A stretch of 64,000 bases of DNA from Synechococcus sp. UW140 (lineage in GTDB: Bacteria; Cyanobacteriota; Cyanobacteriia; PCC-6307; Cyanobiaceae), in assembly GCA_945860085.1 (NCBI GenBank), contig CAMAPJ010000002.1:30520-94519 (forward strand). The letters are read 5' to 3'. The notes beneath the pieces are model-generated. The model saw only the letters and a list, made by a program, of their open reading frames with translations. It was not told the origin of the DNA and did no database searches. Every line of letters starts with the position of its first letter. Positions within the stretch are counted from its first letter, which is position 1. Below, piece by piece: positions 1 to 63,028 of this stretch. A program made the position numbers and the translations under genes.

Positions 1-2483
1 GCCAGTCCCGACTTCGCTTCAGGGTTGAGCTCGATCCGAGCTGCCTAATCGCCCTCGAAGCTCACATCCGATCCAGTCAGCACGTTCACCAAGTGCGCAT
101 CAATAGCCTGGCTGGTTGTTGCGTGGTTAGCTTCGATCCCGGCGCAGAACTGGATATCGACCATTGGCTGGCGCACTTACCGCGCGAAGCGGCACTGCGT
201 CTGCCGGATTTTCGTCCCAGGGAGAGCCTCAGCACTGGCCTAGAGAGCGCTGCCCAGGAGAGCGGCGAAGGTGAAGAACCGTTTGTGCCTACCAGGATTG
301 TCCTTCCTGTGGCCTCCCTTGGTCTGGCGCTGCTGGCTGGACCCCTTTCCCTGCCGCCCTTGGCTGTGGCCGCATTCATTCTGGTCGCAGCCCAGCTGAG
401 CTTCCGTCGCGCCTGGCAAGGATTGCGCGAGGAGCGCAAGATCAACGTTGATTTCCTCGATGGCCTGGCGGTTGTGCTGCACAGCCTCGATGGCTTCTTG
501 GTCGGCCCGGCAATGATGATCACCATGATTGAGGGGGGTGAAGCAGTTCGCGACGCCACTCAGCGAATTGCCCATTCCGCCAATACAGATCTGCTGGCCA
601 GCCTCCAAACGGATGTGCGCCTGCTGAAGGATGGCGAAGAACGGATCGTGCCGAGCACCAGCCTGGAGGCCGGCGATCGCATTCAACTGTTTGCCGGTGA
701 CCAGATTCCCGTCGATGGTGTGATCGAAAGTGGCGAAAGCTCCCTCGATGTCGTCAAATTAACGGGCGAATCTGTGCCCCGTGAAGCCGGTCCTGGCGAC
801 GAGGTCCTGGCAGGGTTCATCCTGCTGGAAGGGGCCTTGATCATCCAGACCTCAGCCGTGGGCGAGGCCACCCGGATTGGCCAAATCACTTCGATGATTG
901 AATCGGCCCCCGTTTTCGATACTCGTGTCGGTAACTACGCCGGCAAAATCGCCAACCGTTTTGTGCTGCCCACCCTGGCCCTAGCTGGCCTATCCCTAAT
1001 ACTCAGCGCCGGCAACATTGCGCAGGCGGCCTCCCTGCTGATGTTTGATTTGGGCACGGGTCTGAGGGTTTCGGTGCCGACGGCAATCATGGCGGCCCTG
1101 ACCAAAGCCGGCAGCCAGGGGCTGTTGATTCGTAGTGGTCGGGCCCTAGAGCAATTGGCCGATGTAGATGTGGTGGTGTTTGACAAAACCGGAACCCTCA
1201 CCCAGGGCCATCCCTCGGTGGTGGAGGTGGAGCTGCTACGCGACGGCGACCGCCAGGGACTGATCCGGCTGGCCGCCTCAGCGGAACAGGGCCTCAACCA
1301 TCCGGTGGCCGAAGCCGTGATCAACCACGCTGTTGAGCTGGGCCTCGACACCCTGCCCTGTGAGCGCTGGGATTACCGCATCGGCCGGGGCGTGAGCGCC
1401 CAGATCGATGGCCACCAGGTGTTGGTTGGCAACGCCAGGTTGCTGCGCGAAGAGGGGCTGGAACCGGCCGCATCGAGCGCCGAACCCCGTCTGGCGACGG
1501 CGACGCCTGTCTATCTGGCCGTAGATGGCAAGCTCGAAGCGGTGATCTACGCGGCCGATGCGATTCGGCCCGACAGCCGCCAGCTGATCCAGGAGCTCCA
1601 CCGCCGCGGCATCCAGGCCCACATGCTCACAGGCGATGTGGCGGCCGTCGCCCATGCCGTTGCCGCACAGCTGGGCTTAGCACCCGAAGAGGTGCACGCC
1701 GAAGCTCTGCCCGATCAAAAAGCGGAACTGGTCAAACAACTTGCCCAGCAAGGTCATAAGGTTGCTTTTGTGGGCGATGGCATCAACGATTCGGCCGCTC
1801 TTGCCTATGCCGATGTCTCAATTTCGTTTGCCTCGGGCAGTGATCTTGCCCGGGAAACGGCAGACATTGTGCTCACCAACGACAAGGTGTCGGGCCTGCT
1901 CGTAGCGCAGGATCTTTCGAGGCGAACCTTCGAGCTGGTCAAACAAAACATCGGCATTGTGGGGGTTCCGAACCTCTCAGCCCTAGTGGTCGGGACCTTC
2001 CTGCCGATCAGTCCGATTCTGGCGGTGATGCTCAACAACGGCTCCAGCTTGGTGGCGGCCGCTAACGCCATGCGCGTGCTCGGCTTCCGCGCCAAGGAGC
2101 TCCCGGCCGCCAGCGATGTCGCCGCAACTCCTGCGGCAGAACAGCCCATCCCCTCTACGGATCAACCCAGTCAGCAGGCCACTGCGCCAAACCCTATTGA
2201 AGTTCTGCAAGTCCCCCAGGCCCAGCGGGTCCAGCAGTTTAGGGAACCAGCAGTAGAGACAGGTGCGGAACCCCAATCAACTCGTCAAGATGGGGAACGA
2301 GCTACGGACGGTTTGGAGGTGAGCCTGACTGAGCTATCGAGTCGATTGAGTCTCAATCATCAGGCGATCACGGCCAGGCGACGTCGCACTGATTTCAGCC
2401 ATTGGGTGCGCAGCCACGATCCGGAGGGCCATGGCTGGAGGTATTGCAGCCAGACAAAGATGTATCGCAGCGTTGTGGCTTAA
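1..2483 (+). CDS. P-type (P1B-like, heavy-metal-type) cation-transporting ATPase; 5' end probably lies outside the window
   Basis: ORF track gives 93..2483 (GTG start). The same frame is open from nt 3, with no ATG/GTG/TTG before 93. Motifs: TGES (KLTGESVP), DKTGTLT (Asp codon 1182-1184), MLTGD, VGDGINDSAALAYADVSISF. An N-terminal HMA-like fold segment (RLRFR...VRINSLAGCCVVSF) begins at the window edge. A ~130-aa non-membrane C-terminal tail follows. Confidence 0.85.
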   Translation, partial: QSRLRFRVELDPSCLIALEAHIRSSQHVHQVRINSLAGCCVVSFDPGAELDIDHWLAHLPREAALRLPDFRPRESLSTGLESAAQESGEGEEPFVPTRIVLPVASLGLALLAGPLSLPPLAVAAFILVAAQLSFRRAWQGLREERKINVDFLDGLAVVLHSLDGFLVGPAMMITMIEGGEAVRDATQRIAHSANTDLLASLQTDVRLLKDGEERIVPSTSLEAGDRIQLFAGDQIPVDGVIESGESSLDVVKLTGESVPREAGPGDEVLAGFILLEGALIIQTSAVGEATRIGQITSMIESAPVFDTRVGNYAGKIANRFVLPTLALAGLSLILSAGNIAQAASLLMFDLGTGLRVSVPTAIMAALTKAGSQGLLIRSGRALEQLADVDVVVFDKTGTLTQGHPSVVEVELLRDGDRQGLIRLAASAEQGLNHPVAEAVINHAVELGLDTLPCERWDYRIGRGVSAQIDGHQVLVGNARLLREEGLEPAASSAEPRLATATPVYLAVDGKLEAVIYAADAIRPDSRQLIQELHRRGIQAHMLTGDVAAVAHAVAAQLGLAPEEVHAEALPDQKAELVKQLAQQGHKVAFVGDGINDSAALAYADVSISFASGSDLARETADIVLTNDKVSGLLVAQDLSRRTFELVKQNIGIVGVPNLSALVVGTFLPISPILAVMLNNGSSLVAAANAMRVLGFRAKELPAASDVAATPAAEQPIPSTDQPSQQATAPNPIEVLQVPQAQRVQQFREPAVETGAEPQSTRQDGERATDGLEVSLTELSSRLSLNHQAITARRRRTDFSHWVRSHDPEGHGWRYCSQTKMYRSVVA

Positions 2484-3032
2484 GTGTCACAACCCCGCGG
2501 CCCTCTCCAACTCGAGCGTTGCGCCCAGCTGATCCATGCCACGCCCCTGCGCAGGCGTTATCGCCTCACCTCGACAACCCCGATCCAGTGGCACGAGCTT
2601 GAGAAGCACTTCAAGGAGCACCTGCCGCGCCGGGGACTGGACTGGAGGCTGAATCCAGCGGCCCAGTCCCTAGTGATTTCGGGCCACCCAGACGGCACCT
2701 CCGCTCCCCTTGAGCAGGCTCTGCCACTCGTGGTTGCCGGCCTGGCCCGGGCCGGGGCTACACCGGCGGCGGCAGCCGAAGTGGTGAGACTTTCAATTCG
2801 ACCGCCCAAGCCCCCCTTGCGCCCTTGGCGCTGGTTGCTCATACCCGTCAATCTGGCCAGCCTGGTTTTGAGCCTGTCCTTTCTGTCCCTGGCGACCATC
2901 TTCAGCCTGTTGGGGCTGGTCGGACTAATGCTGCCCTTGGCGCCCGGAACCCAGTTGCTAGTGCTGGCCAGTTTGGCCGTGGAGCTGGCCTTGCTGTTGC
3001 GAAGCCCCTTCCTCGCCCGGCCTGCCGCCTGA
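2484..3032 (+). CDS. Hypothetical protein: N-terminal HMA-like domain plus C-terminal hydrophobic (2-3 TM) region
   Basis: GTG start lies immediately after the upstream TAA stop. The N-terminus (RRRYRLTS...LDWRLNPAAQSLVISG) resembles the N-termini of both flanking ATPase genes. The C-terminus (LLIPVNLASLVLSLSFLSLATIFSLLGLVGLMLPLAPG...) is hydrophobic. Confidence 0.55.
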   Translation: MSQPRGPLQLERCAQLIHATPLRRRYRLTSTTPIQWHELEKHFKEHLPRRGLDWRLNPAAQSLVISGHPDGTSAPLEQALPLVVAGLARAGATPAAAAEVVRLSIRPPKPPLRPWRWLLIPVNLASLVLSLSFLSLATIFSLLGLVGLMLPLAPGTQLLVLASLAVELALLLRSPFLARPAA

Positions 3033-3072
3033 AGCCCAGATCCTTGCCCCAGCCACCCTCCCATCAGTCGCC

Positions 3073-5229
3073 ATGACAGGCATCCGCGGCCAGGTCCTGC
3101 TCCCCCCCCTGTGTTCCCTGGTCAGTGATCTGCCGGGGCGGATCCGATTGCAATCAGAGCCCCTAGGCCACTCGCCCGAACTACGGCGCCACTGCCGGCT
3201 GACCCTTTATAGCTGCCATTGGCTGGTGTCCTTTCGGATCAATCCGATCAGTGGCTCGCTCAGCATTCGCTTCCCAGACGAACGGCGCAAGGAGCTGGGA
3301 TACCTGCTCAAGGATGCCTTCGAACAACCGGAGCTGCTGCCCTCGCGATCCAGTCCTGATGCAGACATCAGCCTGAGCAGTGGCATCAAACGGCTCAATA
3401 GCGGTCAGGCCCTACGCCATGGCAGTTTGGCTGCCTTTCTGGTAGGTGTGGACCTGCTGTTTCCGATCCCGGCGATCCTGTTCTCGGGCGTCACTGCCTT
3501 GCTGCTGCTGCCTCTCATGGGCAGCGTGATCAAGCATCTGCGCAGCCGCCGTGAACTGCCGATGGATAGTTTGGATCTTGGTTTTTCAACCGTATTAATC
3601 AGCCAGGGCCTGGCTGGAGAAGCCCTAGTTGATCTAATCATCGGCGATGCCAGCACGGCCCTGCAGAGTGCCTTTCTGCAAGGGGACCATGATTCGCTGG
3701 CCAGGGGTCTGGTGGATCGACTGGGCCATTCCATCACTCTCAAGATCACCGCTCCCTGGGTGGGCGAAAAGGACCTGCTTGAGGTCAAGGCTGGGGATCG
3801 CTATAGCGCCGAACCCCAGTCGCTGATTTATCTAAGCAGCACGATCATTGAAGGTGAGCTGACGGTATTTAACCGATTGGTGGATGGCCAATGGGCTCCC
3901 CTTCTGGTTGGTGTTGGCGATTGCCTGCAACCGGGTTCCTTTGTGATCCAGGGGAGAGCCGAGCTGGAAGTGGAGCTCACCATGCGCAACCATGCGATCT
4001 ACAGCCAGAGCCAACGGCCCTCTTGGGCCCGCCTGCAACAGTCCCGGATACAAAAAAGCCTCGGCCTTTACAAGCGTCTGATGGCACCCCTGCTGTTCGC
4101 TGCCGGCACCTACTGGTATTTCAGTGGAGCGATTCAACGCTCCCTCGGTGCATTTCAATTCAACCCGCTCAACGACTGGCAAACCAGCAATCTCGCCTCC
4201 CGCCTGACGGCCATGGCCGAACTGCGCCTGCACAATCTGAAGATTCGCGACGCTGATTCTCTCTCGATTCTGGGCAAGGTCAGCCATGTGGTGATCAGCC
4301 GCAGTTGCCTCGACCAGATTGGCGGCATCATGCCGATTGAACACCTGCCTGTGGATAGCCCCCTGGCCAAGCACACCTTGCTGAGGCTTCTGGCCGGAAT
4401 GCAGCGCTATCTGGTGACCCAGGACAGCATTCCGATCTGGTCCAACGAACTGAGCCTGAGCGAAGACGCTTTGGCAGTGGACAGCCTCAATCTCGATAAC
4501 GGTGAAGGGGGTTGGCGGGTGCGGCTGGCCGATGGCCGGGTGTTCGATGTGGCCACCCAGAGCGATCCCCCCGCCCCGATCCCCCACACCCATCTCAATC
4601 CGCTGGAAGTTCGTCAGGGCGACCAGGTGATGGGCTACGTCGAATTGCACACATCCCCCGATCCCAGCTGGATTGAACTCTGCCGCGCCCTTGGTGAGCT
4701 GGGAGTGGCGATCCACATTGTTGGCTCCGACAAACGGGAGCGCATTGCCCAGATGGTGGCGCCCCTGCTACTGCCTGATCCAGGCACCATCCATGGGGAG
4801 TGCAGCTGGGCGGAGCGGTTGGAGTTGGTGCAAGCACTGCAGGCGGATGGTGCCTGCGTGGCCTATGTGGGCTATGTGCTTAATGACATGCCAGCAGCCT
4901 TCCAGGCTGATGTATCGATCAGTATCGATGTGGATGATGACAGCGCCTTTAGCGAAGGAATCTGCGATGTGGTCATTGATCAAGATGCCGCCTGGATTGC
5001 CCGCCTGATCGACATGAGCCGCCGACTTGAAGCTACGGCTAACAGTAACTTTGGCCTGATCGGCATTACCCACCTAGTTTCCGCCGCCGCCACAGCGACA
5101 GCCCTGATCAACCCGTTGCAAACCGTTCTGCTGGCGGATCTACCGCTGGTGCTTGCTGAATTGCGCAACCTCTCAGTCTTGGCCAACCTGAAGGGCCGCA
5201 AGCGCTTCAATAGTCCAACTGCCGACTAA
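3073..5229 (+). CDS. Degenerate P-type ATPase-like protein (probable pseudo-enzyme): phosphorylation and actuator motifs lost
   Basis: 718-aa ORF with the same architecture as the 1-2483 gene. N-terminal HMA-like domain is GRIRLQSE...FRINPISGSLSIRF. At the DKTGT position it reads VVISRSCLDQIGG (codons 4297-4311). TGES is absent. GDGxND is degraded to VGYVLNDMPAAFQADVSISIDV. Confidence 0.75.
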   Translation: MTGIRGQVLLPPLCSLVSDLPGRIRLQSEPLGHSPELRRHCRLTLYSCHWLVSFRINPISGSLSIRFPDERRKELGYLLKDAFEQPELLPSRSSPDADISLSSGIKRLNSGQALRHGSLAAFLVGVDLLFPIPAILFSGVTALLLLPLMGSVIKHLRSRRELPMDSLDLGFSTVLISQGLAGEALVDLIIGDASTALQSAFLQGDHDSLARGLVDRLGHSITLKITAPWVGEKDLLEVKAGDRYSAEPQSLIYLSSTIIEGELTVFNRLVDGQWAPLLVGVGDCLQPGSFVIQGRAELEVELTMRNHAIYSQSQRPSWARLQQSRIQKSLGLYKRLMAPLLFAAGTYWYFSGAIQRSLGAFQFNPLNDWQTSNLASRLTAMAELRLHNLKIRDADSLSILGKVSHVVISRSCLDQIGGIMPIEHLPVDSPLAKHTLLRLLAGMQRYLVTQDSIPIWSNELSLSEDALAVDSLNLDNGEGGWRVRLADGRVFDVATQSDPPAPIPHTHLNPLEVRQGDQVMGYVELHTSPDPSWIELCRALGELGVAIHIVGSDKRERIAQMVAPLLLPDPGTIHGECSWAERLELVQALQADGACVAYVGYVLNDMPAAFQADVSISIDVDDDSAFSEGICDVVIDQDAAWIARLIDMSRRLEATANSNFGLIGITHLVSAAATATALINPLQTVLLADLPLVLAELRNLSVLANLKGRKRFNSPTAD

Positions 5230-5332
5230 AAAAGCGAAGGCTCGGCCAATGATCAATCCAGGCAAGTTGAACTTGAACCCTCTCAACGTTCAAAAAGCCT
5301 GCTCCGGTGAATTGCGATCGCGCCTGGAGCCC

Positions 5333-8300
5333 CTATTTGGCCTCCATCCAGTTGGGGCCGACCCCCGTTTCTACACGCAGCGGCACCGACAGCTGCACCG
5401 CCGTTTCCATCGTGCGGCGGGTGATTTCCAGGACCGCGTCCAGGGCTTCTGGGGCCGCTTCTAGAACCAGTTCATCGTGCACCTGCAAGAGCAAGCGGGC
5501 GGGCAGGCCGGCTGCGGCCAGTTCCCGGTGCAGCTGCACCATCGCCAACTTGATGATGTCGGCACTGGAACCCTGAATCGGCGCATTCGCCGCTGCCCTC
5601 AGTTGTTGGGCCTCCATGCCGGCGCGGCGGGCCACCGCCAGGTCAATCTCGAGAGGATCCTTACCCAGCAGGCGGCCCAGACCATGGGGATCGAAGGCGA
5701 AGGGACGGCGGCGGCCCAGGATCGTCTCCACATAGCCGCGGGAGAGGGCTAGGCGCTCCTGCAGTTCCAGGAAGGCGAACACCTGGGGATAGCGCTGCTT
5801 GTATTTGGTAAGGAACTCCTTGGCCTGGGCCTGGCTTACCCCGGTTTCGCGGGCGAAGCGCTGGGCCCCCATGCCATAGATCACGCCGAAATTGATCGTT
5901 TTACCAAGCCGGCGTTCATCGGCGCTCACCTCATCTTTGTCGAGCAGCAGGCGGGCCGTGAGGGCATGGACATCGTCGCCAGCCAAGTAGGCCGCCACTA
6001 GGACCGGCTCACCCGAAAGGTGGGTGAGGATGCGCAGCTCGATCTGGCTGTAATCGGCGCTAATCAGATGCCAACCCTCCTGGGGCAAGAAGGCCTTGCG
6101 GATCCGCCGGGAGAATTCCGTGCGGATGGGAATGTTCTGCAGGTTGGGATTGCTGCTCGACAGGCGGCCGGTGGCGGTGACTGCCTGGTTGAAATCCGTA
6201 TGGACCCGACCCGTTTCCGGCTCCATTAGGGCCGGCAGGGCATCCACATAGGTGCTCTTGAGCTTGCTGAGGGTGCGATGTTCGAGCACTAGGGGCACCA
6301 CTGGATGGGCGTCCTCCAGTTTTTCCAACACGGCGGCATCGGTGCTCCAACCGGTCTTGGTCTTGCGGGATTTCTTGCGATCGAGGCCGAGGCTGTCAAA
6401 CAGCAGTTCACCCAGCTGTTTCGGCGAGGCCAGGTTGAAGTCGACGCCCGCGGCGGCGCGGGCCTCCAGCTCCAGCCGGGCCAGGGTTGTGGCCAGCTCA
6501 GCGGACAGCATGGCCAGGTAGGCCGTATCGATGCGGATGCCAGTGGCCTCCATCAGGGCGAGCACCGGCTCAAGGGGCAGCTCCACGTCATCGAGGAGCA
6601 CAGGCAGGGCCGGCCCCAGATCGACCAGCTGCTGGCGCAGCAGCCCGGTCAGCCGCCAGGTGAGGTGCACATCCATGCCGCAATAGAGGGCGGCTGCCTC
6701 GACCGGCACCGAAGCGAAGGTCGTCCCCTTCGGCACTAGGTCGACGAAGCGGGTGGGGCTGAAACCAAAATTGCGCCCAGCGAGGTCATCGAGGCCATGT
6801 TTGGCATTGGCATCGCGCAGGTAATCCGCCAGCAGGGTGTCCATCGCCACTCCGCCTAGGGCCAAGCCGTGGCGCATCAACACCAACCGAGCGTATTTAG
6901 CGTTCTGCAGGGTTTTCGGATGGCGGTCACTCGCCAGCCAGGGAGCCAGGGCAGCCAGAACATGCTCGAGGGGCAGCTGGGGCGGCGCCGGCGGCGGCAC
7001 GCTGAGCAGGTCGGCTGCGGCGGGAGGGTGGTGGCCGATCGGGATATAGGCCAGATCGGCGAGGCCCTCGCCCCAGCAGAGACCCAGGCCCACCAGCTCC
7101 GCCTGGAAAGGGTTCAAGGCCGTGGTTTCGGTATCGAGGGCAATGGGGCTGGCCGGATCAGTGCTGGCCAGCAGCCGTTCGACCAGGGCTTGCAAGTCGC
7201 CCTCGGAGCCAATCAGTTGGGGGACCAGGAGGGGCAGCGCGCCCGGGCAGGGGGGGGTGGTCGGGAAGGTTGCCGGGGAAGTTGGAGGGGAAGTTGGAGG
7301 GGAGGTTGGAGGGGAGGTTTCCTGAGTTGGCTCCAGCACCCCAGCCTGCTTGCCTGGCGCTGGGCCCAAGACAGGTTGGTCGGCTGCTTCGGTCGGCCCA
7401 CCCGTCAGGGCCGGCTTCAGCCCAGGCCCTGCCAGAGCGGGGTCCACCGCAGTTGCCTCCGGGGGCGGCTCCGCCGAGAAAATCCGCGCAAAGTTGCCCA
7501 CCTGCTTGACCAGGCTGAACAACTCCAGCTCTTCCAGACTGGCCGCCAGGCTGCCGGCGTTGACCGCCCCTAAAGCCAGCCGCGGCTCGCTCGGCAGGGG
7601 GATGTCCACCAGGATCTCGGCCAACATGCGTGAGCGGTAAGCGCTGTCTCGGTCGGCGCTGAGCTTGGCCTTCAGGGCACCCTTTAAGGCACCCTTGCTG
7701 TCCTTGTCGCCAAGGCCATCGAGGGCGGCATAGACACCATCAAGGTCGCCGTTCTCCTTGAGCAGGTTGATCGCCGTTTTCGGGCCTACCCCCTTGACGC
7801 CTGGGATGTTGTCGGAGCTATCGCCGGTGAGAGCCTTGAGATCCACCACCTCCTCGGGCGGGACGCCCAATTTGGCGATCACTCCCTCGCGCTTGATTTC
7901 CAAGGGACCACCGCTTTTGGCGTAGGGCCCGCCGCCCATGTAAAGCACGGCAATATCCAGCTCGTCATCCACGAGCTGGAAGAGGTCCCGGTCACCCGAA
8001 AGGATGCGCACCCGCCAGCCGCCAGCCGCGGCACGGGTGGCCAGGGTGCCGAGCACGTCGTCGGCCTCAAAGCCGGGGGCCATGCAAAGGGGTAGATCCA
8101 GGCCGGTCTGCAAGATCTGCTGCAGGTTGGCTAGGTCAGCGAAGAAGTGTTCTGGCGCCTCATCGCGGTGGGCCTTGTAGGCGCTGTCGGCCTCATGGCG
8201 AAAGGTGGGATGGGCCGTGTCGAAGGCGATCACCACTCCCTGGGGAGCCAAGCCCTTGCAGTTGTCCAGCAAGGCCTTGAGGAAGCCATAGGTCACCGAG

Positions 8301-8530
8301 GTGGGAACTCCTTCCTTAGTGCTGAGGCCCCCTTCGCCCCCTTTGGAGAAGGCATAGAAACTTCGGAAGGCCAGGCTGTGGCCATCGACCAGAAGCAGCA
8401 GGGGCGCCTGGGAGCCCAAGCTTGGAATGGATTCGTTCACAAGACCTGACTGGTTCGGGGGCATGCCTGCTGCTGTCATGGCCTGCAACCAGAAGCAACT
8501 CAGATTGGCAGAGGGGCCAACCGGCTCCAT
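5333..8530 (-). CDS. polA: DNA polymerase I
   Basis: 5'-nuclease motif LLLVDGHSLAFRSFYAF; 3'-5' exonuclease motif IALDTETT; polymerase motifs ADYSQIELRIL, RRLGKTINFGVIYG, LQVHDELVLE. ATG at 8530. Internal ATGs at 8479 and 8464 are alternative starts. Confidence 0.95.
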   Translation of the reverse strand: MEPVGPSANLSCFWLQAMTAAGMPPNQSGLVNESIPSLGSQAPLLLLVDGHSLAFRSFYAFSKGGEGGLSTKEGVPTSVTYGFLKALLDNCKGLAPQGVVIAFDTAHPTFRHEADSAYKAHRDEAPEHFFADLANLQQILQTGLDLPLCMAPGFEADDVLGTLATRAAAGGWRVRILSGDRDLFQLVDDELDIAVLYMGGGPYAKSGGPLEIKREGVIAKLGVPPEEVVDLKALTGDSSDNIPGVKGVGPKTAINLLKENGDLDGVYAALDGLGDKDSKGALKGALKAKLSADRDSAYRSRMLAEILVDIPLPSEPRLALGAVNAGSLAASLEELELFSLVKQVGNFARIFSAEPPPEATAVDPALAGPGLKPALTGGPTEAADQPVLGPAPGKQAGVLEPTQETSPPTSPPTSPPTSPATFPTTPPCPGALPLLVPQLIGSEGDLQALVERLLASTDPASPIALDTETTALNPFQAELVGLGLCWGEGLADLAYIPIGHHPPAAADLLSVPPPAPPQLPLEHVLAALAPWLASDRHPKTLQNAKYARLVLMRHGLALGGVAMDTLLADYLRDANAKHGLDDLAGRNFGFSPTRFVDLVPKGTTFASVPVEAAALYCGMDVHLTWRLTGLLRQQLVDLGPALPVLLDDVELPLEPVLALMEATGIRIDTAYLAMLSAELATTLARLELEARAAAGVDFNLASPKQLGELLFDSLGLDRKKSRKTKTGWSTDAAVLEKLEDAHPVVPLVLEHRTLSKLKSTYVDALPALMEPETGRVHTDFNQAVTATGRLSSSNPNLQNIPIRTEFSRRIRKAFLPQEGWHLISADYSQIELRILTHLSGEPVLVAAYLAGDDVHALTARLLLDKDEVSADERRLGKTINFGVIYGMGAQRFARETGVSQAQAKEFLTKYKQRYPQVFAFLELQERLALSRGYVETILGRRRPFAFDPHGLGRLLGKDPLEIDLAVARRAGMEAQQLRAAANAPIQGSSADIIKLAMVQLHRELAAAGLPARLLLQVHDELVLEAAPEALDAVLEITRRTMETAVQLSVPLRVETGVGPNWMEAK
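7263..7320. repeat. Tandem 12-nt repeat (ggggaRgttgga, about 4-5 copies) inside polA, encoding (TSPP)n
   Basis: Read directly: units at 7275-7286, 7287-7298, 7299-7310 and 7311-7320, plus a degenerate copy at 7263-7274. On the minus strand they encode TSPPTSPPTSPPTSPATFPTTPP, between the 5'-nuclease and exonuclease domains. Confidence 0.9.
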
Positions 8531-8566
8531 ATCGTGGGACGGCGTTCCTTGCTGGCGCTAAAAACG

Positions 8567-8809
8567 ATGGCCCGTACGCCCAACCACTACGCCATTCACC
8601 TGCTGCTGGCCGGAGGCCACCACCAGGTGATCAACTTCCCCGATCTGGCCTCGTTCCAGCAGTGGTATGGCAACGTGCTGAATTCCGGTCCAGCCGAGGC
8701 CTTCGTCAACGTGCCGATCAATGATCTGCCGGGCGAATATTTGGTGGTTCGCCCCAATGGCGTGGTGGGGATCCGGGTGGAACCCCAGTTCGCCTCCTTC
8801 GACGAATGA
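8567..8809 (+). CDS. Small conserved hypothetical protein (80 aa)
   Basis: ORF 8534..8809. The ATG at 8567 gives MARTPNHYAIHLLLAGGHHQVINFPDLASFQQWYGNVL..., a balanced, non-artefactual composition. Divergent from polA. Confidence 0.55.
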   Translation: MARTPNHYAIHLLLAGGHHQVINFPDLASFQQWYGNVLNSGPAEAFVNVPINDLPGEYLVVRPNGVVGIRVEPQFASFDE

Positions 8810-8828
8810 TCTCCCTGGAGCGGCCCGT

Positions 8829-10172
8829 TTGAATCGCCTTGAGCTGCTCTGGAGCGAGTCTTTTTTTGCCGGCTCCCTGGCCCAGTTGATCGCCCGACTC
8901 ACGGGCCTTCCGGCGGTGGTGCTTTTACTTGGCGTTGGCCTTGTGATCGGACGGGCCGGGTTCAACCTGGTCCAGCCAGAAACCCTGGGGCGGGGCCTCG
9001 AACCCCTGGTGGGTCTGCTGGTCAGCCTGGTGCTGTTCGATGGCGGCTTGAATCTGCGCCTGGCCGGCCGCGACCTCCAGCGCACCGTCGTGCAGCTGGT
9101 GGTCGTGCGAGGCATCTTGGGGTTACTGGGCGGCGCCTGGCTGGCCCACCAGCTGGCTGGACTGGCCTGGCCCCTGGCCTGGGTGTTCGCGGCCATTTCC
9201 CTGGCTACAGGTCCGACCGTGGTGACACCCATGGTGCAGCAAATGCGCCTGCTCCCCGGCCTGGGCCAGATCCTGCAGGCCGAAGGGCTGATTTTGGAGC
9301 CGGTGGGCGCCGTTCTGGCCCTGTTGCTGCTGCAGCTGGCCCTGGGTGACCTGGCCGGCTGGGCCGATGTGGTCTCCCTGCTCGGCCTGCGGGTCGGGGG
9401 CGGTGTAGCGATCGGCGCCGCCGGCGGCTTGCTGCTCAGCCTGGTGCTGGAACACCTCCCCAGGGGATCTGGCACGGAGCAGGAGGACCCCCTGCCCCTG
9501 CAACTAATCCTTGGCGCCCTGTTCCTGCTGGTGAGTGGCACCGAATGGCTGTTGCCGGAAGCAGGGTTTCCCGCGGCCGTGGCGGCGGGGGTCGTGGTGG
9601 GCCTGAGGCTGGATAAGGAGGCTAGCCAGCTGGATGAACTGATCGCCCAACTAGCCCAGCTGGCCATCACCGTGCTGTTCCCGCTGCTGGCCGCCGACCT
9701 GTCCTGGGGGGAACTGAGCCCCCTTGGCCTGGGCGGCGTGGGCTGCGTGCTGGCGTTGATGCTCTATCGCTGGCTGGTGATCCAGCTGGGTTCGATCGGC
9801 CTGCCAAGCCTGGGCTGGAGCGAGAAACTGATTCTCAGCTGGATCGCCCCGCGCGGCATCGTCACCGCCGCCGTGGCCAGTCTGTTTGCCCTGCAACTGG
9901 AGGCTGCTGGGGTGGAGGGCGCTTCGGCACTCAAGGGCCTGGTGTTCTTAATGATCCTGCTCACCGTGGGCCTGCAGGGCTTCACGGCGCCCAGCCTGGC
10001 CCGCCGCCTGGGACTGGTGGTGACCGCTGAGCCCAGTGGGCCCGAAACCTTCGTCAGTGCCATCAACGAGCCGGGGCTCCTTGCAGGAGCCCCGGCAGCC
10101 CAGGGTTCTCCTGATCCAATCGAGCCAGCTCCAAGCCAAACAGATCCGACCGACAGCGGCACCTCGACTTGA
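8829..10172 (+). CDS. Na+/H+ (cation:proton) antiporter, CPA1/NhaP-like
   Basis: ORF open from 8721 but overlaps the upstream gene. An in-frame TTG at 8829 gives LNRLELLWSESFFAGSLAQLIARLTGLPAVVLLLGVGLVIGRAGF. Multi-TM protein with the typical WIAPRGIVTAAVASLFAL segment. The start is uncertain. Confidence 0.8.
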   Translation: MNRLELLWSESFFAGSLAQLIARLTGLPAVVLLLGVGLVIGRAGFNLVQPETLGRGLEPLVGLLVSLVLFDGGLNLRLAGRDLQRTVVQLVVVRGILGLLGGAWLAHQLAGLAWPLAWVFAAISLATGPTVVTPMVQQMRLLPGLGQILQAEGLILEPVGAVLALLLLQLALGDLAGWADVVSLLGLRVGGGVAIGAAGGLLLSLVLEHLPRGSGTEQEDPLPLQLILGALFLLVSGTEWLLPEAGFPAAVAAGVVVGLRLDKEASQLDELIAQLAQLAITVLFPLLAADLSWGELSPLGLGGVGCVLALMLYRWLVIQLGSIGLPSLGWSEKLILSWIAPRGIVTAAVASLFALQLEAAGVEGASALKGLVFLMILLTVGLQGFTAPSLARRLGLVVTAEPSGPETFVSAINEPGLLAGAPAAQGSPDPIEPAPSQTDPTDSGTST

Positions 10173-10275
10173 GCGCTGCAGGGATCAGCCCCCAGGTCTG
10201 ATGGCCACCCAACGACCTTGGGGAGAAGGAGGCTGCTGGACCCTGCCAGCCCCATCTCCCCCAAGCTCCGGCCGA

Positions 10276-11742
10276 TCAGAGACTGCGGCGGATGCGTTCG
10301 GCGGCCTCGCCACTGGGCTGGAGTAGGAGCCAGGTGCTGAGCAGGTCGGGGCCCTGGAGACTGCCAAGTAGGGCAGCTCGCAGGGTTTTCATCAACACAC
10401 CTTTTTTGACTCCGACCGCCGCCACCGCCTCGCCCAAGAGGGCTTGGGCCTGGTCAACCGTGAGCGGGCCTTCGCCAAGGCGCTCTAAAAGGGCCTGCAG
10501 TGCTTCGCGGGCACCCGCACTCTCGAGTTGGCCAAGGGCGGCTTCGCCGAGCTCGGGCCGACTGAAGAAGGGCCGGGCCTGCTCGATGCCATCGCGAAGG
10601 GTGACCAGCGAGGGCCCGATCAGGGCGCAGAGCGACTCCAAAGCGGCCTGGTCTGGGCCGGCTGCACCCAAGCAGCCACCGCTGGCCGGATCCAGCCAGC
10701 CCTCGGCCAGCCAGAGGGGCTGCAAGGCTGCTAGCAGGTCCGCAGGGTTCAAGTCATGGAGCACCTGGCTGTTCAGCCAGTTGAGCTTGTCCCAGTCAAA
10801 GCGGGCTCCCGCTTTGTTGACCCGATCAAAATCGAAGACGGCGGCGGCCTCCGCCAGGTGGAAGCGCTCGCCCATGCCCTCCGGCGGCGACCAGCCAAGC
10901 AGGGTCATGTAATTGGCCAGGGCTGCGGCGGTATAGCCCTGGGCGCGGAAATCGCTCACGGAGGTGACGCCATCGCGCTTGGACAGCTTTTTGCCTTCCT
11001 TGTTGAGGATCAGCGGCGTATGGGCGAACACCGGCAGCGATAGGCCTAGGGCCTCGTAGAGCAGGATTTGTTTGGCCGTGTTGGCGATGTGGTCTTCGCC
11101 GCGAATCACGTGGCTGATCGCCATGGCGGCGTCATCAACAACGACCACCAGGTTGTAGAGGGGATCGCCGATCTGATCAGCCGGGGCCCGCCGAGCGATC
11201 ACCATGTCGCCGCCGAGGTCAGCGCCGGCCCAGCGCATCTCCCCCCGCACCAAATCGTGCCAGCCGATGCTGGCACGATCCTCAATACGAAACCGCACCG
11301 TGGCCTCACGACCCTCGGCGAGGTAAGCCTGCTGCTGGGCGGCGCTCAGGTCCCGATGACGGTTGTCGTAGCGGGGGGGCTTGTTTTCCGCCGCCTGGCG
11401 GTCGCGCATCTCCTGCAACTCTGCCTCGCTGGCGAAGCAGCGGTAGGCATGACCTGAAGCCAGCAGCTGGCCAATGGCGGCGCGATGGGCCTCAATGCGC
11501 TCGCTCTGGACCACCGGCTCCCCGTCCCAGGCCAACCCCAGCCATTGCAGACCTTCGAGGATGTTGGCCGTGAATTCAGGCTTGCTGCGCTCCCTGTCGG
11601 TGTCCTCGATACGCAGCAAAAACTGACCGCCATGGCGTTTGGCATACAGCCAGTTAAATACCGCCGTACGGGCGGTGCCGATGTGCAGGGTGCCGGTGGG
11701 GCTAGGAGCCAGACGGACACGAACTGAACCCGTGTTCGCCAT
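10276..11742 (-). CDS. gltX: Glutamyl-tRNA synthetase
   Basis: [24 protein letters not shown] (HIGH motif), [12 protein letters not shown], and KLSKRDG (KMSKS-type motif). Confidence 0.95.
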
Positions 11743-11783
11743 AGTCGTGCGACTCCTTGTTGGTTGAAATGGGTTGGTTTGAA

Positions 11784-11857
11784 CGGGACCGACGGGGCTC
11801 GAACCCGCAACTTCCGCCGTGACAGGGCGGTGCTCTAACCGATTGAACTACGGTCCC
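11784..11857 (-). tRNA. tRNA-Asp (anticodon GTC), CCA not encoded
   Basis: Reverse complement is GGGACCGTAGTTCAATCGGTTAGAGCACCGCCCTGTCACGGCGGAAGTTGCGGGTTCGAGCCCCGTCGGTCCCG. It shows a 7-bp acceptor stem, anticodon stem CCGCC/GGCGG with loop CTGTCAC, and T-loop GGTTCGAGCCC. Confidence 0.9.
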
Positions 11858-12040
11858 AGGCTGGTTTTTCAACCAACAACGTTTGGCTTACTAGCCAAAA
11901 CCACAGATCAGCCAAGGCCGGATCTGGATCGCCCGGGCAACGGTTGCCGCCCTGCGCTTTGATCAGTATCCGCTGCGACGGGCCCCTGCGTCAACCAATC
12001 GGCTGAACGAGAGGCTGCAGGCAAGCTCCTTGCGCAACCA

Positions 12041-12086
12041 TGAAAAAACCCCTAGTCGGACTCCAGTGGAGCACGATTAGGGGTTT
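12041..12086 (-). terminator. Rho-independent terminator-like hairpin downstream of the 12124-12312 gene
   Basis: The minus strand reads AAACCCCTA-(loop with inner CTCC/GGAG pairing)-TAGGGGTTT followed by TTTCA. 9-bp outer stem at 12046-12054 / 12078-12086. Confidence 0.5.
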
Positions 12087-12123
12087 AAAGACTGGGCCGC
12101 TATCGGCCCAATCAACGGATGGT

Positions 12124-12312
12124 TCAGGGACGGAAGCCGGCCGGTTCAATCAGGCGAACCTGATTGCCCCTGGCCGTGAATTCGCGACCCTGGTCGCTCT
12201 GGACAACGACTCGACCACCAGATTTGACACGGATCACCCGAGCCCGAACCCAGCCAAGGGCTGCGGACTCGAGAACTTTGACCACATCACCAGGCTGTAG
12301 ATCCAACTCCAT
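12124..12312 (-). CDS. Small (62 aa) SH3/KOW-like hypothetical protein
   Basis: The ATG at 12312 (MELDLQPGDVVKVLESAALGWVRARVIRVKSGGRVVVQSDQGREFTARGNQVRLIE...) avoids overlap with tRNA-Trp. The gene is followed by its own terminator hairpin. Confidence 0.55.
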   Translation of the reverse strand: MELDLQPGDVVKVLESAALGWVRARVIRVKSGGRVVVQSDQGREFTARGNQVRLIEPAGFRP

Positions 12313-12348
12313 GTCCGGAACCACGAAACTGCAGGAAGGGGAATCGGA

Positions 12349-12421
12349 CGCGCCGTGGAGGACTTGAACCCCCGGCATCAGGTTTTGGAGACCTGCGTTC
12401 TACCAACTGAACTAACGGCGC
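12349..12421 (-). tRNA. tRNA-Trp (anticodon CCA), 3' CCA not encoded
   Basis: Reverse complement is GCGCCGTTAGTTCAGTTGGTAGAACGCAGGTCTCCAAAACCTGATGCCGGGGGTTCAAGTCCTCCACGGCGCG. Anticodon stem CAGGT/ACCTG with loop CTCCAAA. Confidence 0.9.
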
Positions 12422-12492
12422 AAGGCGATCCCCCCCACGGTCAAGGCCCATATCAAGTACGGACTTTGACCTGGGCAAATGAGGCGTGAGCC

Positions 12493-12978
12493 TCAGCGAT
12501 CGAAGCGCTGCTTGACACGAGTGGCCTTGCCCACCCGATCGCGCAGATAAAAGAGCTTCGCTCGACGCACCTTACCGCGTCGCTCCACCTTGATGGAAGC
12601 AACTTGGGGGCTGTGCAGCATGAAGACACGCTCCACGCCGACCCCCTGGAAAATGCGGCGCACAGTGATGGTCTCATGGAGACCGCCGTGGCGCTTAGCG
12701 ATCACAACACCCTCGTAGGGCTGGATGCGCTCCTTGTTGCCTTCACTGATGCGCACACCCACGCGGACGGTGTCGCCCACATAGATCTCCGGCAGATCGC
12801 TCTTAAGCTGATCGGCTTCGAAGGCCCGGATCAGATCCTGGGCGCTGAGTTTCCCCGTGGTGGCCTTCACAGGCTCCAGGGTTGCCACCGCAGCGGCACT
12901 GGTCTCCAAGCTGGTCTCCACCGTGGTGGTCTCCGTCTCGCTGGTCATGTCATTGATCTCGTTGGAATCCGCTGCCAT
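12493..12978 (-). CDS. rplS: 50S ribosomal protein L19 with acidic/Thr-rich N-terminal extension
   Basis: C-terminal 115 aa are canonical L19 ([35 protein letters not shown]...[15 protein letters not shown]). ATG at 12978. The ORF is open to 13011. Confidence 0.9.
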
Positions 12979-13035
12979 CCCAGCTCCGAAAGACGCCTGG
13001 CCAAACAACAAGTGTACCGCTCAGGCTGACCCTCC

Positions 13036-13435: not shown

Positions 13436-14314
13436 ATGAATCTTTTTGCTGATCTGCTGGCTACCACCACCCGTCAAGCGGCCGCCAGCCCGTCAGCAGC
13501 GGAACAAGCTGCCGCAACCCAGACCGGTCCCCGCATCCAGAAGGGCCGTCGGGGGGTTGAAATCAAGTCTGCGCGGGAAATTGCCATCATGCGCAAGGCC
13601 AGCCGCATCGTGGCGACGGTCCTTAGGGAGATCACTGAACTGGCCGCTCCGGGCATGACCACCGCCGACCTGGATCGCCATGCCGAAGCGCGGATCCGGG
13701 CCATGGGCGCCACCCCCAGCTTCAAGGGCTACCACGGATTTCCGGCCAGCATTTGCGCGTCGATTAACAATGAAGTCGTCCATGGCATCCCCAGTAGCAA
13801 ACGGGTGATCCGGGCCGGCGACCTAGTCAAAATCGACACAGGCGCCTATTTCGAGGGCTACCACGGCGATAGCTGCATCAGCCTCTGCGTTGGCGAGGGG
13901 GCCAGCGAGGAGGCCGTGAAGCTCACCCGGGTGGCCCAGGAGTCCCTGATGAAGGGCCTGGCCCGGATCAAGGCGGGCAACAGCCTGCTTGATATTGCCG
14001 GCGCCGTTCAGGACCACGTTGAAGCCCATGGCTACGCGGTGGTCGAGGATTACACCGGCCATGGCGTGGGCCGCAACCTGCATGAGGAGCCCTCGGTGTT
14101 CAACTTCCGCACCCGGGACCTGCCCAACTTGACCCTGCGCGCCGGCATGACCCTGGCGGTGGAGCCAATCCTCAATGCCGGTAGCAAGTCCTGCCGCACC
14201 CTCAAGGACCGCTGGACCGTGGTGACCGAAGACGGCAGCCTCTCGGCCCAGTGGGAGCACACCATCGCCGTGACCAGCGATGGCTGCGAAATCCTCACCG
14301 ACCGCGACTTCTAA
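13436..14314 (+). CDS. map: Methionine aminopeptidase, type I
   Basis: Metal-ligand motifs [34 protein letters not shown] and QWEHTIAVT. Confidence 0.93.
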
Positions 14315-15120
14315 GCCGGCGGGCCAGCTGGCTGAGTCCCTTCTGGATGAGGGCTTACTGGAGGCTGGCCGCGTCGGCTGAACAGCCCCATGTACGTCCA
14401 GCGACCCAGCAGCACCATCGGCATCAGGGCATAGGTGAGGGGGTTGGGACTGACAATGATGAGACCCAGGTTCCAACTGGCAAACACCAACACGGCTCGG
14501 GCCACGAAGCCAGCCCCCAGCAGCCCGATCGGGTTAAGGTCGGAGCGGAAGGGCCCCAGCACAAGCCGGCGGATGCGCAGCTCGGGACCGGCCAAATCCA
14601 GGGCCCGCAGGCTGAGCAGCTGGCCCAGCAGCCGCTTACTGATCTCATATAGGGGGCTCACAGCAGGCAGGATTTCGGCCTCGGAGGTATTGATCCAAAC
14701 CTCCCGGCGCAACCTCTTGCCGGTGCCCCGCTTTATAGAACTGTGGCCTGCCTGAGGCGCGGCGGCGAAGAGTTCAAGCAAGCGCAGGCTGCTGAGGGCA
14801 TTCACCTCCAAGGAGCGCTCCATCGCGGCCCCACTGCGATCGGCATGGGTATTAACCCCGTGGTTGATCACCAGGATGTCGATCTCACTGAGCAGCTCGC
14901 TGAGCTCGGCTTCCTGGCCGCAGCGCCAGCGGCACTGCTCCAGCGCGATGGGAGCCCCCGCCGCTGAGGTCAGCTGCAAGGGCTCGGCCCTGGTGGTGAG
15001 CGCCACCAAGCTGGCGCCGCAGCCATGAAAGGCCCGTAACAACTCCACCCCCAGGCTGCCGCCAGCGCCGGTGATGGCAACGCGTCGGCCCGCAAACGGA
15101 CTGCTAAAACCTGGTCCCAT
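14311..15120 (-). CDS. Short-chain dehydrogenase/reductase-family protein with C-terminal membrane segment
   Basis: [11 protein letters not shown] Rossmann motif, ILVINHGV, and hydrophobic C-terminus ([35 protein letters not shown]). ATG at 15120. The ORF is open to 15216. Confidence 0.7.
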
Positions 15121-15184
15121 CGGACTGCGCAGCTGGGAAAGCCCCAGGATGCGCCATCCTGGGGCCAAGAGACATATCGACCCA

Positions 15185-15781: not shown

Positions 15782-15826
15782 TCCGCCTAGATTCTCGCCA
15801 CCGCAGCCGCGCCCGGGGCAACCGCC

Positions 15827-22711: not shown

Positions 22712-22997
22712 CGCCCTAACGAAATGACAGCCGCAGTCTGATCGGCGACCAGAACGGTCATCGCTAGAGAAGTGCCGCAAGCGAAAATCAGTGGCGCCAC
22801 TATCAAATAACGAAAGAGGCCTGCTGTAGAGGTGGAAACAGTGCCGCAGATCTGAGGCTAAATCAGACCCAGGGAGTAGGCGCATCTTGCCTAACCTGAT
22901 AGGGGCCCAAGGATTAACAGCTGAGCACCCAAGCAGGGCGCAATCGCCTCGCTCAGCCGCCAGAACCGGCCGGCTCAATCCACTTGAAGAGTTCACG

Positions 22998-61550: not shown

Positions 61551-61768
61551 GGCTAAGCGAACCAAGACAATTCCCCTTCACGCACCGATCCTCAAGCGAG
61601 ACAAAGACGATCCCACAGCAGCACTTAGGCACGCTTAATAACGCTTCTCACTAATCACTCAGCCGAAGATACTACCGTCAAATTCGCATAAGCGAGTTGA
61701 ATCGTGAGCCCATAGTGCTATTATTTGAAGCGATTTGCCTGGCTCCACGAGTGGCCCCTCCACCCAAG

Positions 61769-63025: not shown

Positions 63026-63028
63026 GTG

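Follow-up and report, generated by a model that had tools for sequence, protein, structure and literature searches.

A conserved picocyanobacterial gene island encodes CoBaHMA proteins that include a P1B-type ATPase and a paralog with replaced catalytic residues

Two described bacterial systems come closest to the locus reported here, which occupies the first 5,229 nucleotides of a 64,000-nucleotide stretch of Synechococcus sp. UW140 DNA (GenBank assembly GCA_945860085.1, contig CAMAPJ010000002.1, positions 30,520 to 94,519; hereafter the window) and consists of three consecutive genes, g1, g2, and g3. The first system is the set of genes surrounding ccyA in cyanobacteria. The CoBaHMA (Conserved Basic residues HMA) domain, which is the HMA_2 family of Pfam, was first described at the N-terminus of calcyanin, a marker of cyanobacterial intracellular amorphous CaCO3 (iACC) formation (10.1101/2024.07.07.602159; PMC8890360), and it has been proposed in the literature to dock on anionic lipids or partners. 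W-type calcyanins and other bacterial membrane proteins carry this domain N-terminally (Benzerara et al. 2022, PMC8890360). In Microcystis, the ccyA region reads DUF5132, CoBaHMA-DUF454Cter, CoBaHMA protein, DUF5132, ccyA, and cax, and the CoBaHMA-DUF454 gene, the ccyA-adjacent DUF5132 gene, and cax are all co-expressed with ccyA (Bruley et al., 10.1101/2024.07.07.602159), while the ccyA region of a Fischerella megaplasmid includes a Ca2+/H+ exchanger, two cation ATPases, and a carbonic anhydrase (PMC8890360). The second system is the fez gene cluster of ferrosomes, which are described mainly in anaerobes. These clusters encode an R-rich P1B-6 pump, small GxxxG membrane proteins, R-rich proteins with two transmembrane (TM) segments, and sometimes a second R-rich ATPase (10.1101/2020.01.10.902569). 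According to the ferrosome literature, FezA and FezB are both required for ferrosome formation, and their joint expression in E. coli yields ferrosomes. An R-rich RxR motif has been reported on FezB, related P1B ATPases, and FezC (Grant et al., 10.1101/2020.01.10.902569). The CoBaHMA domain, the R-rich pumps, and the association of DUF5132 and DUF454 with ccyA are already published.

The locus in the window shares parts with both systems. Its first gene encodes a P1B-type ATPase with every catalytic motif in place, its third encodes a protein of the same fold in which the catalytic residues are replaced, and the second encodes a small membrane protein; all three begin with a CoBaHMA domain. 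We are highly confident that this triad is an operon of CoBaHMA proteins that includes a pseudo-pump maintained by selection, and that it belongs to a conserved island.

Layout of the triad and its shared N-terminal domain

Inspection of the open reading frames (ORFs) in positions 1 to 5229 revealed three tightly packed consecutive genes, all on the plus strand:

3-2483 (TAA stop 2481-2483), plus strand: g1, catalytically complete CoBaHMA-P1B-type ATPase whose 5' end lies beyond the window start
2484-3032, plus strand: g2, 182 aa, CoBaHMA domain and C-terminal YbaN/DUF454-like helical hairpin (tail-anchored type)
3073-5229, plus strand: g3, 718 aa, CoBaHMA-pseudo-P1B-ATPase with the fold kept and the catalytic residues replaced

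The GTG start codon of g2 abuts the TAA stop codon of g1, the spacer between g2 and g3 is 40 nt, and a scan of the operon for consensus promoters and terminators found no promoter-like site or convincing terminator between the genes. For these reasons, the three genes look like a single operon. An earlier reading made from the sequence alone had described them as a three-gene cassette, and the three packed plus-strand genes are indeed there, but the cassette is not self-standing: it forms the downstream part of a larger island, with at least eight genes, that the window edge cuts. The cut falls within g1, and removes approximately its first 36 codons. On L025, a metagenomic contig 99.87% identical to positions 1 to 13032 of the window, g1 is complete at 862 aa and its start codon lies 106 nt before window position 1.

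The N-terminal domains and the membrane hairpin of g2 are located as follows:

3-182, plus strand: CoBaHMA domain of g1 (partial), beta1 SRLRFRV, beta2/3 VRINSLAGCCVVSF (HMA_2, hhalign)
2523-2768, plus strand: CoBaHMA domain of g2, beta0 with invariant His18, beta1 RRRYR, beta2 WRLN (AlphaFold2 [AF2] model and conservation)
2826-3011, plus strand: transmembrane hairpin of g2 with LPLAPG turn (AF2)
3115-3318, plus strand: CoBaHMA domain of g3, beta1 LPGRIRL, beta2 FRIN (HMA_2 E 0.0024, ortholog 2.5e-4; AF2)

HMA_2 (PF19991) is the sole Pfam match of the g1 and g3 N-termini and is always found in the same register, with E values of 0.007 to 0.27 among the g1 orthologs, while one g3 ortholog (P0003) has a precomputed PF19991 match. 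When alignments of orthologs were compared using hhalign, the N-termini of g1 and g2 matched with 93% probability (E 2.7e-7), those of g1 and g3 with 84% probability (E 7e-6), and those of g2 and g3 with an E value of 1e-3. The orthologs of g1, g2, g3, and p177 (a 170-aa protein encoded upstream) follow one common pattern, with a beta0 strand that often contains a His, (P)G-R-h-R-h-R in beta1, a helix, and h-R-h-N...S-h-h-h. The AF2 model of g2 places strands at residues 14-20 and 23-28, a helix at 36-46, strands at 52-57 and 62-67, and a helix at 76-89, all with a predicted local distance difference test score (pLDDT) of 93 to 96; this is a ferredoxin-like core preceded by an additional N-terminal beta0 strand, and the g3 model follows the same order at lower confidence. 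The orthologs of g2 and g3 alike keep R23, R25, and R55 without exception. H18 of beta0 is invariant in g2, and a His is likewise found in p177 and many g1 orthologs, while the corresponding position of g3 is an invariant Ser. CxxC is absent from all three domains. Thus, the HMA-like N-terminal domain without a CxxC site that the sequence-only reading had attributed to all three genes is borne out by Pfam HMA_2, profile-profile comparison, and AF2. The shared module is the already named CoBaHMA/HMA_2 domain, a member of the HMA superfamily with an extra beta0 strand and an Arg-rich face. Like described members of the family, g1, g2, and g3 have the order beta0-beta1-alpha1-beta2-beta3-alpha2 with R-x-R in beta1, R-x-N in beta2, and no CxxC, and the fusion to a C-terminal DUF454 hairpin is exactly that of the Microcystis ccyA neighbor. 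They differ from the family in the beta0 Ser of g3, in an H-C-x6-C-H motif of the same protein, and in the presence of three CoBaHMA proteins in one island (four with the upstream genes). In our motif table (described below), DYSCA/HNxxT (P1B-6) sequences and some of the CPC sequences share this N-terminal signature; the CoBaHMA domain corresponds to the R-rich RxR motif of FezB, related P1B ATPases, and FezC. Beyond this domain, the g2 model (pLDDT 81 overall) ends in a helical hairpin around the LPLAPG turn, which has a weak DUF454/YbaN match in Pfam.

The catalytically complete pump, its altered paralog, and their relatives

The motifs and putative ion-site helices of g1 are the following:

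762-773, plus strand: TGES, A-domain dephosphorylation motif (motif inspection)
1041-1085, plus strand: TM4 ion-site helix MFDLGTGLRVSVPTA (alignments to CopA and CPC-type ATPases)
1182-1202, plus strand: DKTGTLT phosphorylation motif (motif inspection)
1773-1793, plus strand: GDGINDS (motif inspection)
2028-2048, plus strand: MLNNGSS of TM6, at the position of the P1B-6 HNxxT (alignment)
2346-2444, plus strand: C-terminal tail of ~33 aa, kept in the orthologs of loci L004, L006, and L015

Against TIGR01525, the heavy-metal P1B model, g1 scores 481.8 bits (cut-off 346.25), and it also has E1-E2_ATPase and Hydrolase matches. TGES, DKTGTLT, MLTGD, and GDGINDS are all present, just as the sequence-only reading had listed them, together with the N-domain HP motif (LNHP). 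The same reading had seen SVPT in place of a CPC-type motif, which proved to be mis-registered: in alignments to A. fulgidus CopA and CPC-type sequences, CPC lies opposite L-G-T inside FDLGTG, and SVPT matches ATPT, six residues downstream of CPC. What survives is the lack of a thiolate site, as the (C/S/T)P(C/H/S)-type motif of the fourth core TM helix has no counterpart in g1, which has no Pro, Cys, or His there. Nor does g1 carry the P1B-6/FezB signature of D[Y/F]SCA in TM4 and HNxxT in TM6, since it reads DLGTG and NNGSS. The N-terminal R-rich RxR(xR) motif of that subgroup is found in all three proteins (SRLRFRV in g1, RRRYRL in g2, and GRIRLQ in g3).

The g1-type consensus, D-x-G-T-G-(I/L)-R-V-S-x-P-T in TM4 and N-N-G-(S/T) in TM6, is common to ATPases on Nostoc flagelliforme and Gloeothece plasmids as well as many metagenomic proteins. 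In a rough neighbor-joining tree, g1-type sequences cluster apart from, yet next to, the P1B-6 (DYSCA...HNxxT) group; the true DYSCA/HN sequences form a separate clade. We regard g1 as a predicted working P1B-type pump of an unclassified DxGTG...NNG(S/T) subgroup, of which the literature that we searched holds no description. Compared with P1B-6, the Cys and His are exchanged for Thr and Asn in g1, so that the predicted ion-site residues are all oxygen donors. Because the candidate ligands include no Cys or His, the substrate of g1 is probably a hard divalent cation. The C-terminal tail follows a variable low-complexity linker rich in Pro, Ala, and Gln and has the pattern LSxxxQxITxRRRRxDFxxWxxxxDPEGxGWxY; it has no match in Pfam and looks like a small helical or helix-turn-helix-like module.

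In g3, the corresponding positions read quite differently:

3190-3219 (aa 40-49), plus strand: H-C-x6-C-H within/after helix alpha1, candidate metal site
3880-3894, plus strand: VDGQW instead of TGES (alignment)
4153-4188, plus strand: TM4 FQFNPLNDWQTS, helix-breaking Pro kept; F, P, W, and S invariant (alignment)
4297-4314, plus strand: SRSCLD instead of DKTGT(L), the catalytic Asp being Ser (alignment)
4870-4887, plus strand: GYVLND instead of GDGxND (alignment)
5128-5169, plus strand: TM6 LLADLPLVLAELRN; D689 in at least 90% of sequences, P691 and N699 invariant (alignment)

The sequence-only reading had placed SRSCL at positions 4297 to 4311, and this location is exact: alignment with g1 and homologs, in which V-I-S-R-S-C-L-D of g3 stands opposite V-F-D-K-T-G-T-L of g1, revealed no mis-registered DKTGT. 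Its further statements that g3 lacks TGES and has a decayed GDGxND hold as well, in the form of VDGQW and GYVLND. Throughout the g3 family, the position of the catalytic Asp is occupied by Ser, Thr, or Ala, and g3 is predicted to be unable to form the aspartyl-phosphate intermediate. The fold appears to be unaffected. Pfam yields weak E1-E2_ATPase, Hydrolase, and HMA_2 matches for g3, and P1B models match its C-terminal half only. An AF2 model built from 11 homologs has a predicted TM-score of 0.64 with confident cytoplasmic domains and a poor TM region at residues 87 to 210, and in Foldseek its top matches are ZntA (4umw, E 4e-24), CopA, and ATP7B, all at E values around 1e-24. From these matches, we conclude that the P1B fold is kept, while the chemistry is lost. 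Relative to CopA and ZntA (PDB 3rfu and 4umw), g1 and g3 share the overall fold, and g1 has all of the A-, P-, and N-domain motifs including HP; the differences are the lack of a CPC-type motif, an N-terminal CoBaHMA domain instead of a CxxC HMA domain, and the missing phosphorylation site of g3.

The replaced motifs of g3 are themselves conserved. At least 15 syntenic picocyanobacterial loci, spanning 36 to 80% identity, have an uninterrupted g3 ORF, and the ratio of nonsynonymous to synonymous substitution rates (dN/dS; Nei-Gojobori, unsaturated pairs) is 0.135 to 0.185 for g3, as compared to 0.09 to 0.10 for g1 and 0.22 to 0.27 for g2. Invariant residues include F-x-P...W..S in TM4, N-F in TM5, and P...N with a near-invariant D in TM6, as well as the S-C of SRSC, the G-Y...D of the replaced motifs, and CoBaHMA positions. 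The sequence-only reading had argued that g3 is not a decaying duplicate, and its dN/dS, its intact state in these loci, and its own invariant motifs agree with this. H40, C41, C48, and H49 are also invariant in the g3 family, including all additional orthologs and the tandem paralogs of locus L001; the HCx6CH motif is absent from g1, g2, and a 708-aa dead paralog in locus L004 and could be a Zn or metal-sensing site. The family was found using word-indexed and exhaustive profile searches and is small, with ~15 full-length representatives (at 50% identity) above 370 bits before scores drop to <200 bits. It should be noted that a pattern-based genome scan under-reports it, as VSHSC variants were missed and later reached via g1. 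A tblastn search of PLSDB plasmids with g3 and the CoBaHMA-DUF454 protein gave no match.

For the relatives of both pumps, the 150 best profile matches and the plasmid homologs were tabulated by motif and kept if they were at least 560 aa long, which gave 131 sequences. Among these, 38 have no DKT[GA]T, a fraction that is not a frequency because the set is biased to g3-like proteins. In the neighbor-joining tree (no bootstrap, midpoint root), the g3 family, proteins P0030-32, and the group of the L004 708-aa protein form a single all-dead clade with F-(N/D)-P-x-x-D-W in TM4, and this clade would represent old, uniformly dead P1B-like proteins. At least six further dead lineages sit beside active neighbors inside the g1-type clade. 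These lineages are N-domain-deleted forms of ~620 to 680 aa, D-to-A and D-to-G point variants, and a Gloeothece protein labeled 'HMA2 domain-containing protein' in RefSeq. The Gloeothece protein, which is truncated and an independent dead form, is encoded on a plasmid of strain PCC 7822 beside an active g1-type pump and a DUF5132 gene, with a lipid kinase and a DUF1269 glycine-zipper protein near the active/dead pair. On a Nostoc flagelliforme plasmid, a g1-type ATPase adjoins cax. To judge from this distribution, active/dead pairing arose more than once, and this repetition is the strongest indirect argument that the two kinds of protein work as partners.

Textbooks present P-type ATPases as engines made of a single chain. 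The triad places a conserved dead P1B-like clade under purifying selection beside an active pump, and since several independent inactivations have occurred in the CoBaHMA-bearing branch in addition to the conserved clade, pseudo-pumps may be a regular class of functional partners. The literature that we searched has no description of dead or pseudo P-type ATPases, and one reviewed family overview mentions none. Nor is there a description of a conserved clade of dead P1B proteins that is paired with active pumps time and again, although an earlier mention in the CoBaHMA literature is possible. In KdpFABC, the P-type ATPase KdpB energizes a separate, channel-like membrane subunit that is not itself catalytic, which, like pseudoenzyme partners in general, sets a precedent for such a pairing. 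This is an analogy only; KdpA does not have a P-type fold, and a contact between g1 and g3 would be hypothetical.

The conserved island

Tblastn and gene tables were used to map the island in loci L004, L006, L007, L009, L010, L012, L014-L016, and L020-L025. Its order, conserved in at least 15 loci, is (DUF1345/BPSS1818), beta-carbonic anhydrase, DUF5132, CoBaHMA-DUF454, ArsA_HSP20 gene, DUF5132-like, g1, g2, and g3, with the ArsA_HSP20 gene on the strand opposite to the rest. The first DUF5132 protein has ~95 aa and an N-terminal GxxxG helix, the CoBaHMA-DUF454 protein ~170 aa, and the second DUF5132-like protein ~110 to 160 aa. A carbonic anhydrase gene (Pro_CA) is found in every complete locus, and some loci have an extra ~300-aa minus-strand gene without a Pfam match between it and the first DUF5132 gene. 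L025, which represents the window's own population, has the full upstream set, while the window begins inside g1. The hosts are Synechococcus sp. CBW1107 (complete genome, OY986430.1), Vulcanococcus spp., and metagenome-assembled genomes (MAGs) labeled Synechococcus, Cyanobium, or Prochlorococcaceae; synteny of the triad in other cyanobacteria, which the sequence-only reading had proposed to search for, is therefore found across picocyanobacteria. Two of the loci (L010 and L016) come from third-party annotation (TPA) MAGs labeled 'uncultured Klebsiella sp.' that have picocyanobacterial gene content, and these bins are probably mislabeled.

Two further genes near the triad have defined positions:

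5086-6156 of L025, minus strand: ArsA_HSP20 gene, immediately upstream of the window; orthologs in L004, L006, and L020-L024
8721-10172 of the window, plus strand: Na+/H+ (CPA-type) exchanger with a weak K+/H+ antiporter match, 3.5 kb past g3 and behind polA

The ArsA_HSP20 protein is weakly similar to All4481/NosAFP, a cyanobacterial protein of Get3/ArsA fold. When its L025 sequence was inspected, a Walker A motif proved to be missing and the switch-II-like stretch, LPPLHQALQLL, to be degenerate. Because Walker A is missing, this Get3-like protein may be a second pseudo-ATPase of the island, possibly a chaperone for tail-anchored CoBaHMA proteins. The association of the exchanger with the island is tentative in the window, given the intervening polA. 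L025 has the same layout. Elsewhere, a PF00999 gene directly follows g3 in L022 and L023, and an antiporter-like ORF without family assignment is in this position in L014. A cax-like Ca2+/H+ antiporter (TIGR00378, 152 bits) is found ~6.5 kb downstream in six loci. The intervening polA gene (DNA polymerase I, 5333-8530, minus strand) itself has a Pro/Thr/Ser-rich repeat (TSPPTSPPTSPPTSPATFPTTPP) between its 5'-3' exonuclease and 3'-5' exonuclease-like regions.

Several loci depart from the common arrangement. In one sub-lineage (L011, L016, and L023), the tight operon is broken by an insertion between g2 and g3, which in L016 (8310-9899) and L023 (10073-11581) is an alpha/beta-hydrolase gene (~500 aa, minus strand) and in L011 occupies the same gap. 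In L001 (6497-12253), as well as L002 and L003, two tandem paralogs of the g3 family (707 and 750 aa, both with SRSCLD and HCx6CH) come directly after a gene for a CaCA-family antiporter. L004 has a third ATPase-like gene beside the island (13671-15797, minus strand), the 708-aa CoBaHMA protein mentioned above. This distant dead paralog reads TESVL for DKTGT and FDPASDWQLS in TM4, and it adjoins a second Pro_CA gene and a DUF5132 gene. In L015, from a Prochlorococcaceae MAG, g3 (10001-12067) and g1 (6901-9423, a Trp codon changed to a stop) are each interrupted by one in-frame stop, and there is no Get3-like gene, so the stop is not specific to g3; either the whole island is decaying in that lineage or the stops are an assembly/MAG consensus error.

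The island has DUF5132, CoBaHMA-DUF454Cter, cax, and carbonic anhydrase genes among its loci, which covers the iACC accessory genes. With the ccyA neighborhoods, it shares two DUF5132 genes, CoBaHMA-DUF454Cter, and cax, and with that of Fischerella also two cation ATPases and a carbonic anhydrase. It differs in that no ccyA was found here, while the Microcystis neighborhood as described has no P1B ATPase pair. Apart from ccyA itself, the island has a counterpart for each category of the ccyA neighborhoods and fez clusters. As a unit, the picocyanobacterial island is without a description in the literature that we searched. It joins two lines that have so far been separate, the R-rich motif of ferrosomes and the CoBaHMA domain of cyanobacterial CaCO3 biomineralization, and locates the components common to both in freshwater picocyanobacteria that are abundant and can be cultured (Synechococcus sp. 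CBW1107 and Vulcanococcus). This provides candidate genes for bacterial hard-cation compartments, and possibly for picocyanobacterial calcium/carbonate handling.

Proposed function and rival explanations

We propose that the island handles a hard divalent cation (probably Ca2+) in a CoBaHMA-addressed manner, with g3 as a non-catalytic partner, and we give this composite reading a probability of about 0.5. The CoBaHMA heads, through their Arg-rich face, would bring g1, g2, g3, and the upstream p177 to one anionic membrane patch or partner, where g1 would supply ATP-driven transport of the cation. With its conserved polar, ion-pathway-like TM4-TM6 constellation and possible Cys2His2 site, g3 could have a regulatory or scaffolding role; alternatively, it could bind ions and serve as their conduit or sensor. 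The g2 and DUF5132 proteins would organize the membrane, the carbonic anhydrase and exchangers would supply or balance HCO3-/H+/Ca2+, and the Get3-like protein may insert the tail-anchored members. Gene context favors Ca2+, an identity that we infer from the carbonic anhydrase, cax, and NhaP-type genes.

Several points weigh against this proposal. Mn2+, Mg2+, or Fe2+ would suit oxygen-rich sites equally, and neither a riboswitch naming the ion (Rfam at gathering and permissive thresholds, in and upstream of the island) nor a metal regulator that would name it was seen in the island. The beta-carbonic anhydrase could simply be part of the carbon-concentrating mechanism. A ccyA gene, or a Gly/Ala-rich ORF of ~340 aa, was not found in the window or inspected flanks by a check of ORF composition only, and intracellular carbonate is undocumented here for these picocyanobacteria. 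The physical association of g1, g2, and g3 is something that we infer, as is any compartment; the hetero-oligomeric or regulated transporter and the targeting role of the shared domain that the sequence-only reading had suggested would be hypotheses. The dead paralogs of L001-L003 have no g1 or g2 within 10 kb, indicating that the dead protein does not strictly need an adjacent active partner. As for the shared domain, the HMA_2 scores of the g1 and g3 N-termini (11.6 to 21.5 bits) do not reach the gathering score of 30 bits, and the g2 and p177 N-termini have no HMA_2 match in Pfam. The tie of g2 to the domain comes only through profile-profile similarity and predicted secondary structure, and a Foldseek search of PDB with the whole g2 model found nothing significant, just generic alpha/beta structures (best E 0.18). 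At a distance of a few kb from the CBW1107 island, a glutamine-II riboswitch (75.6 bits; L020 5261-5321, minus strand) precedes a DUF4278 gene and is unrelated to the island.

The proposal can be extended to a calcyanin-independent, ferrosome-like 'organelle kit' of freshwater picocyanobacteria that would build and load a lipid-bounded Ca (carbonate or phosphate) store, with dead P1B paralogs as recurrent, selected non-catalytic subunits for the whole pump clade. Its parts would be a CoBaHMA-addressed pump, an obligatory pseudo-pump subunit, GxxxG DUF5132 proteins, and tail-anchored CoBaHMA proteins, for whose insertion the degenerate Get3-like factor would be dedicated. In this extended form, we consider the idea speculative and rather doubtful.

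A different cargo is also conceivable, namely that the island specifies a ferrosome-type lipid-bounded store of Fe (or Mn) phosphate, in which g1 would be a FezB-like pump and g3 a FezH-like second ATPase. The architecture of the cluster does fit the fez categories, with an N-terminal R-x-R on both the pump and the membrane proteins that accompany it (among them R-rich two-TM proteins), a small neighbor of the pump that begins with a hydrophobic GxxxG helix, and a second P1B-like gene. The g1-type pumps are also next to the P1B-6 DYSCA pumps in the tree, even if apart from them, and a PPK2 gene is found within ~5 kb of the island in L020 and L021. However, the P1B-6 signature is missing, its Cys and His having been lost in g1 (DLGTG and NNGSS rather than D[YF]SCA and HNxxT), the second ATPase is dead, and the accessory membrane domains are DUF454-like and DUF5132 instead of DUF4405. 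Furthermore, the host is an aerobic oxygenic phototroph, whereas ferrosomes are known mainly from anaerobes, and the island has no FeoA/B, Fur, or ferritin-like genes, but rather carbonic anhydrase and Ca2+/H+ and Na+/H+ exchangers. An iron store is therefore unlikely.

The passing TIGR01525 score of g1, the membership of its N-terminal domain in the HMA superfamily, and the conserved Cys2His2-like motif of g3 would all be expected of a heavy-metal efflux or resistance operon, in which g1 would be an exporter of Zn, Cd, Co, or Cu, the HMA-like domains would bind metal in a regulatory role, and g3 would be a regulatory paralog that senses metal through HCx6CH. Yet none of the three domains has a CxxC, g1 has no CPC, SPC, or CPH and no Cys or His in TM4/TM6, and the neighbors are carbonic anhydrase and Ca2+/H+ and Na+/H+ exchangers, with no ArsR-, MerR-, or CopY-type regulator or metallochaperone nearby in L020, L021, and L025. 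We consider this explanation improbable. Much the same can be said of inorganic-carbon or pH homeostasis, whether as part of the carbon-concentrating mechanism or in adaptation to alkaline pH, with a pump for H+, Na+, or Mg2+ and no storage compartment. The beta-carbonic anhydrase that heads the island in every complete locus and the Na+/H+ exchanger behind g3 in several loci are in keeping with such a role, but it leaves unexplained both the linkage to cax and the repeated CoBaHMA, DUF5132, and DUF454 proteins, whose counterparts flank ccyA and cax in Microcystis. In addition, P1B-fold pumps are not known to carry H+ or Na+. Lastly, pseudogenization of g3, a decaying duplicate to which its lost catalytic motifs and the in-frame stop of a single MAG might point, is rejected and effectively refuted by the dN/dS and conservation described above, the stop in L015 being accompanied by one in g1 and the loss of the Get3-like gene.

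Two other features of the window lie far from the island. An ORF of 2659 aa (48434-56413, plus strand) has a ketosynthase-like opening (IAIVGIGCRLPGG) and by sequence is probably a polyketide synthase. The ORFs at 61697-64000 and 22487-23134 have a third-position GC content of 0.51 to 0.59, as compared to ~0.75 to 0.8 elsewhere, and may be recently acquired DNA.

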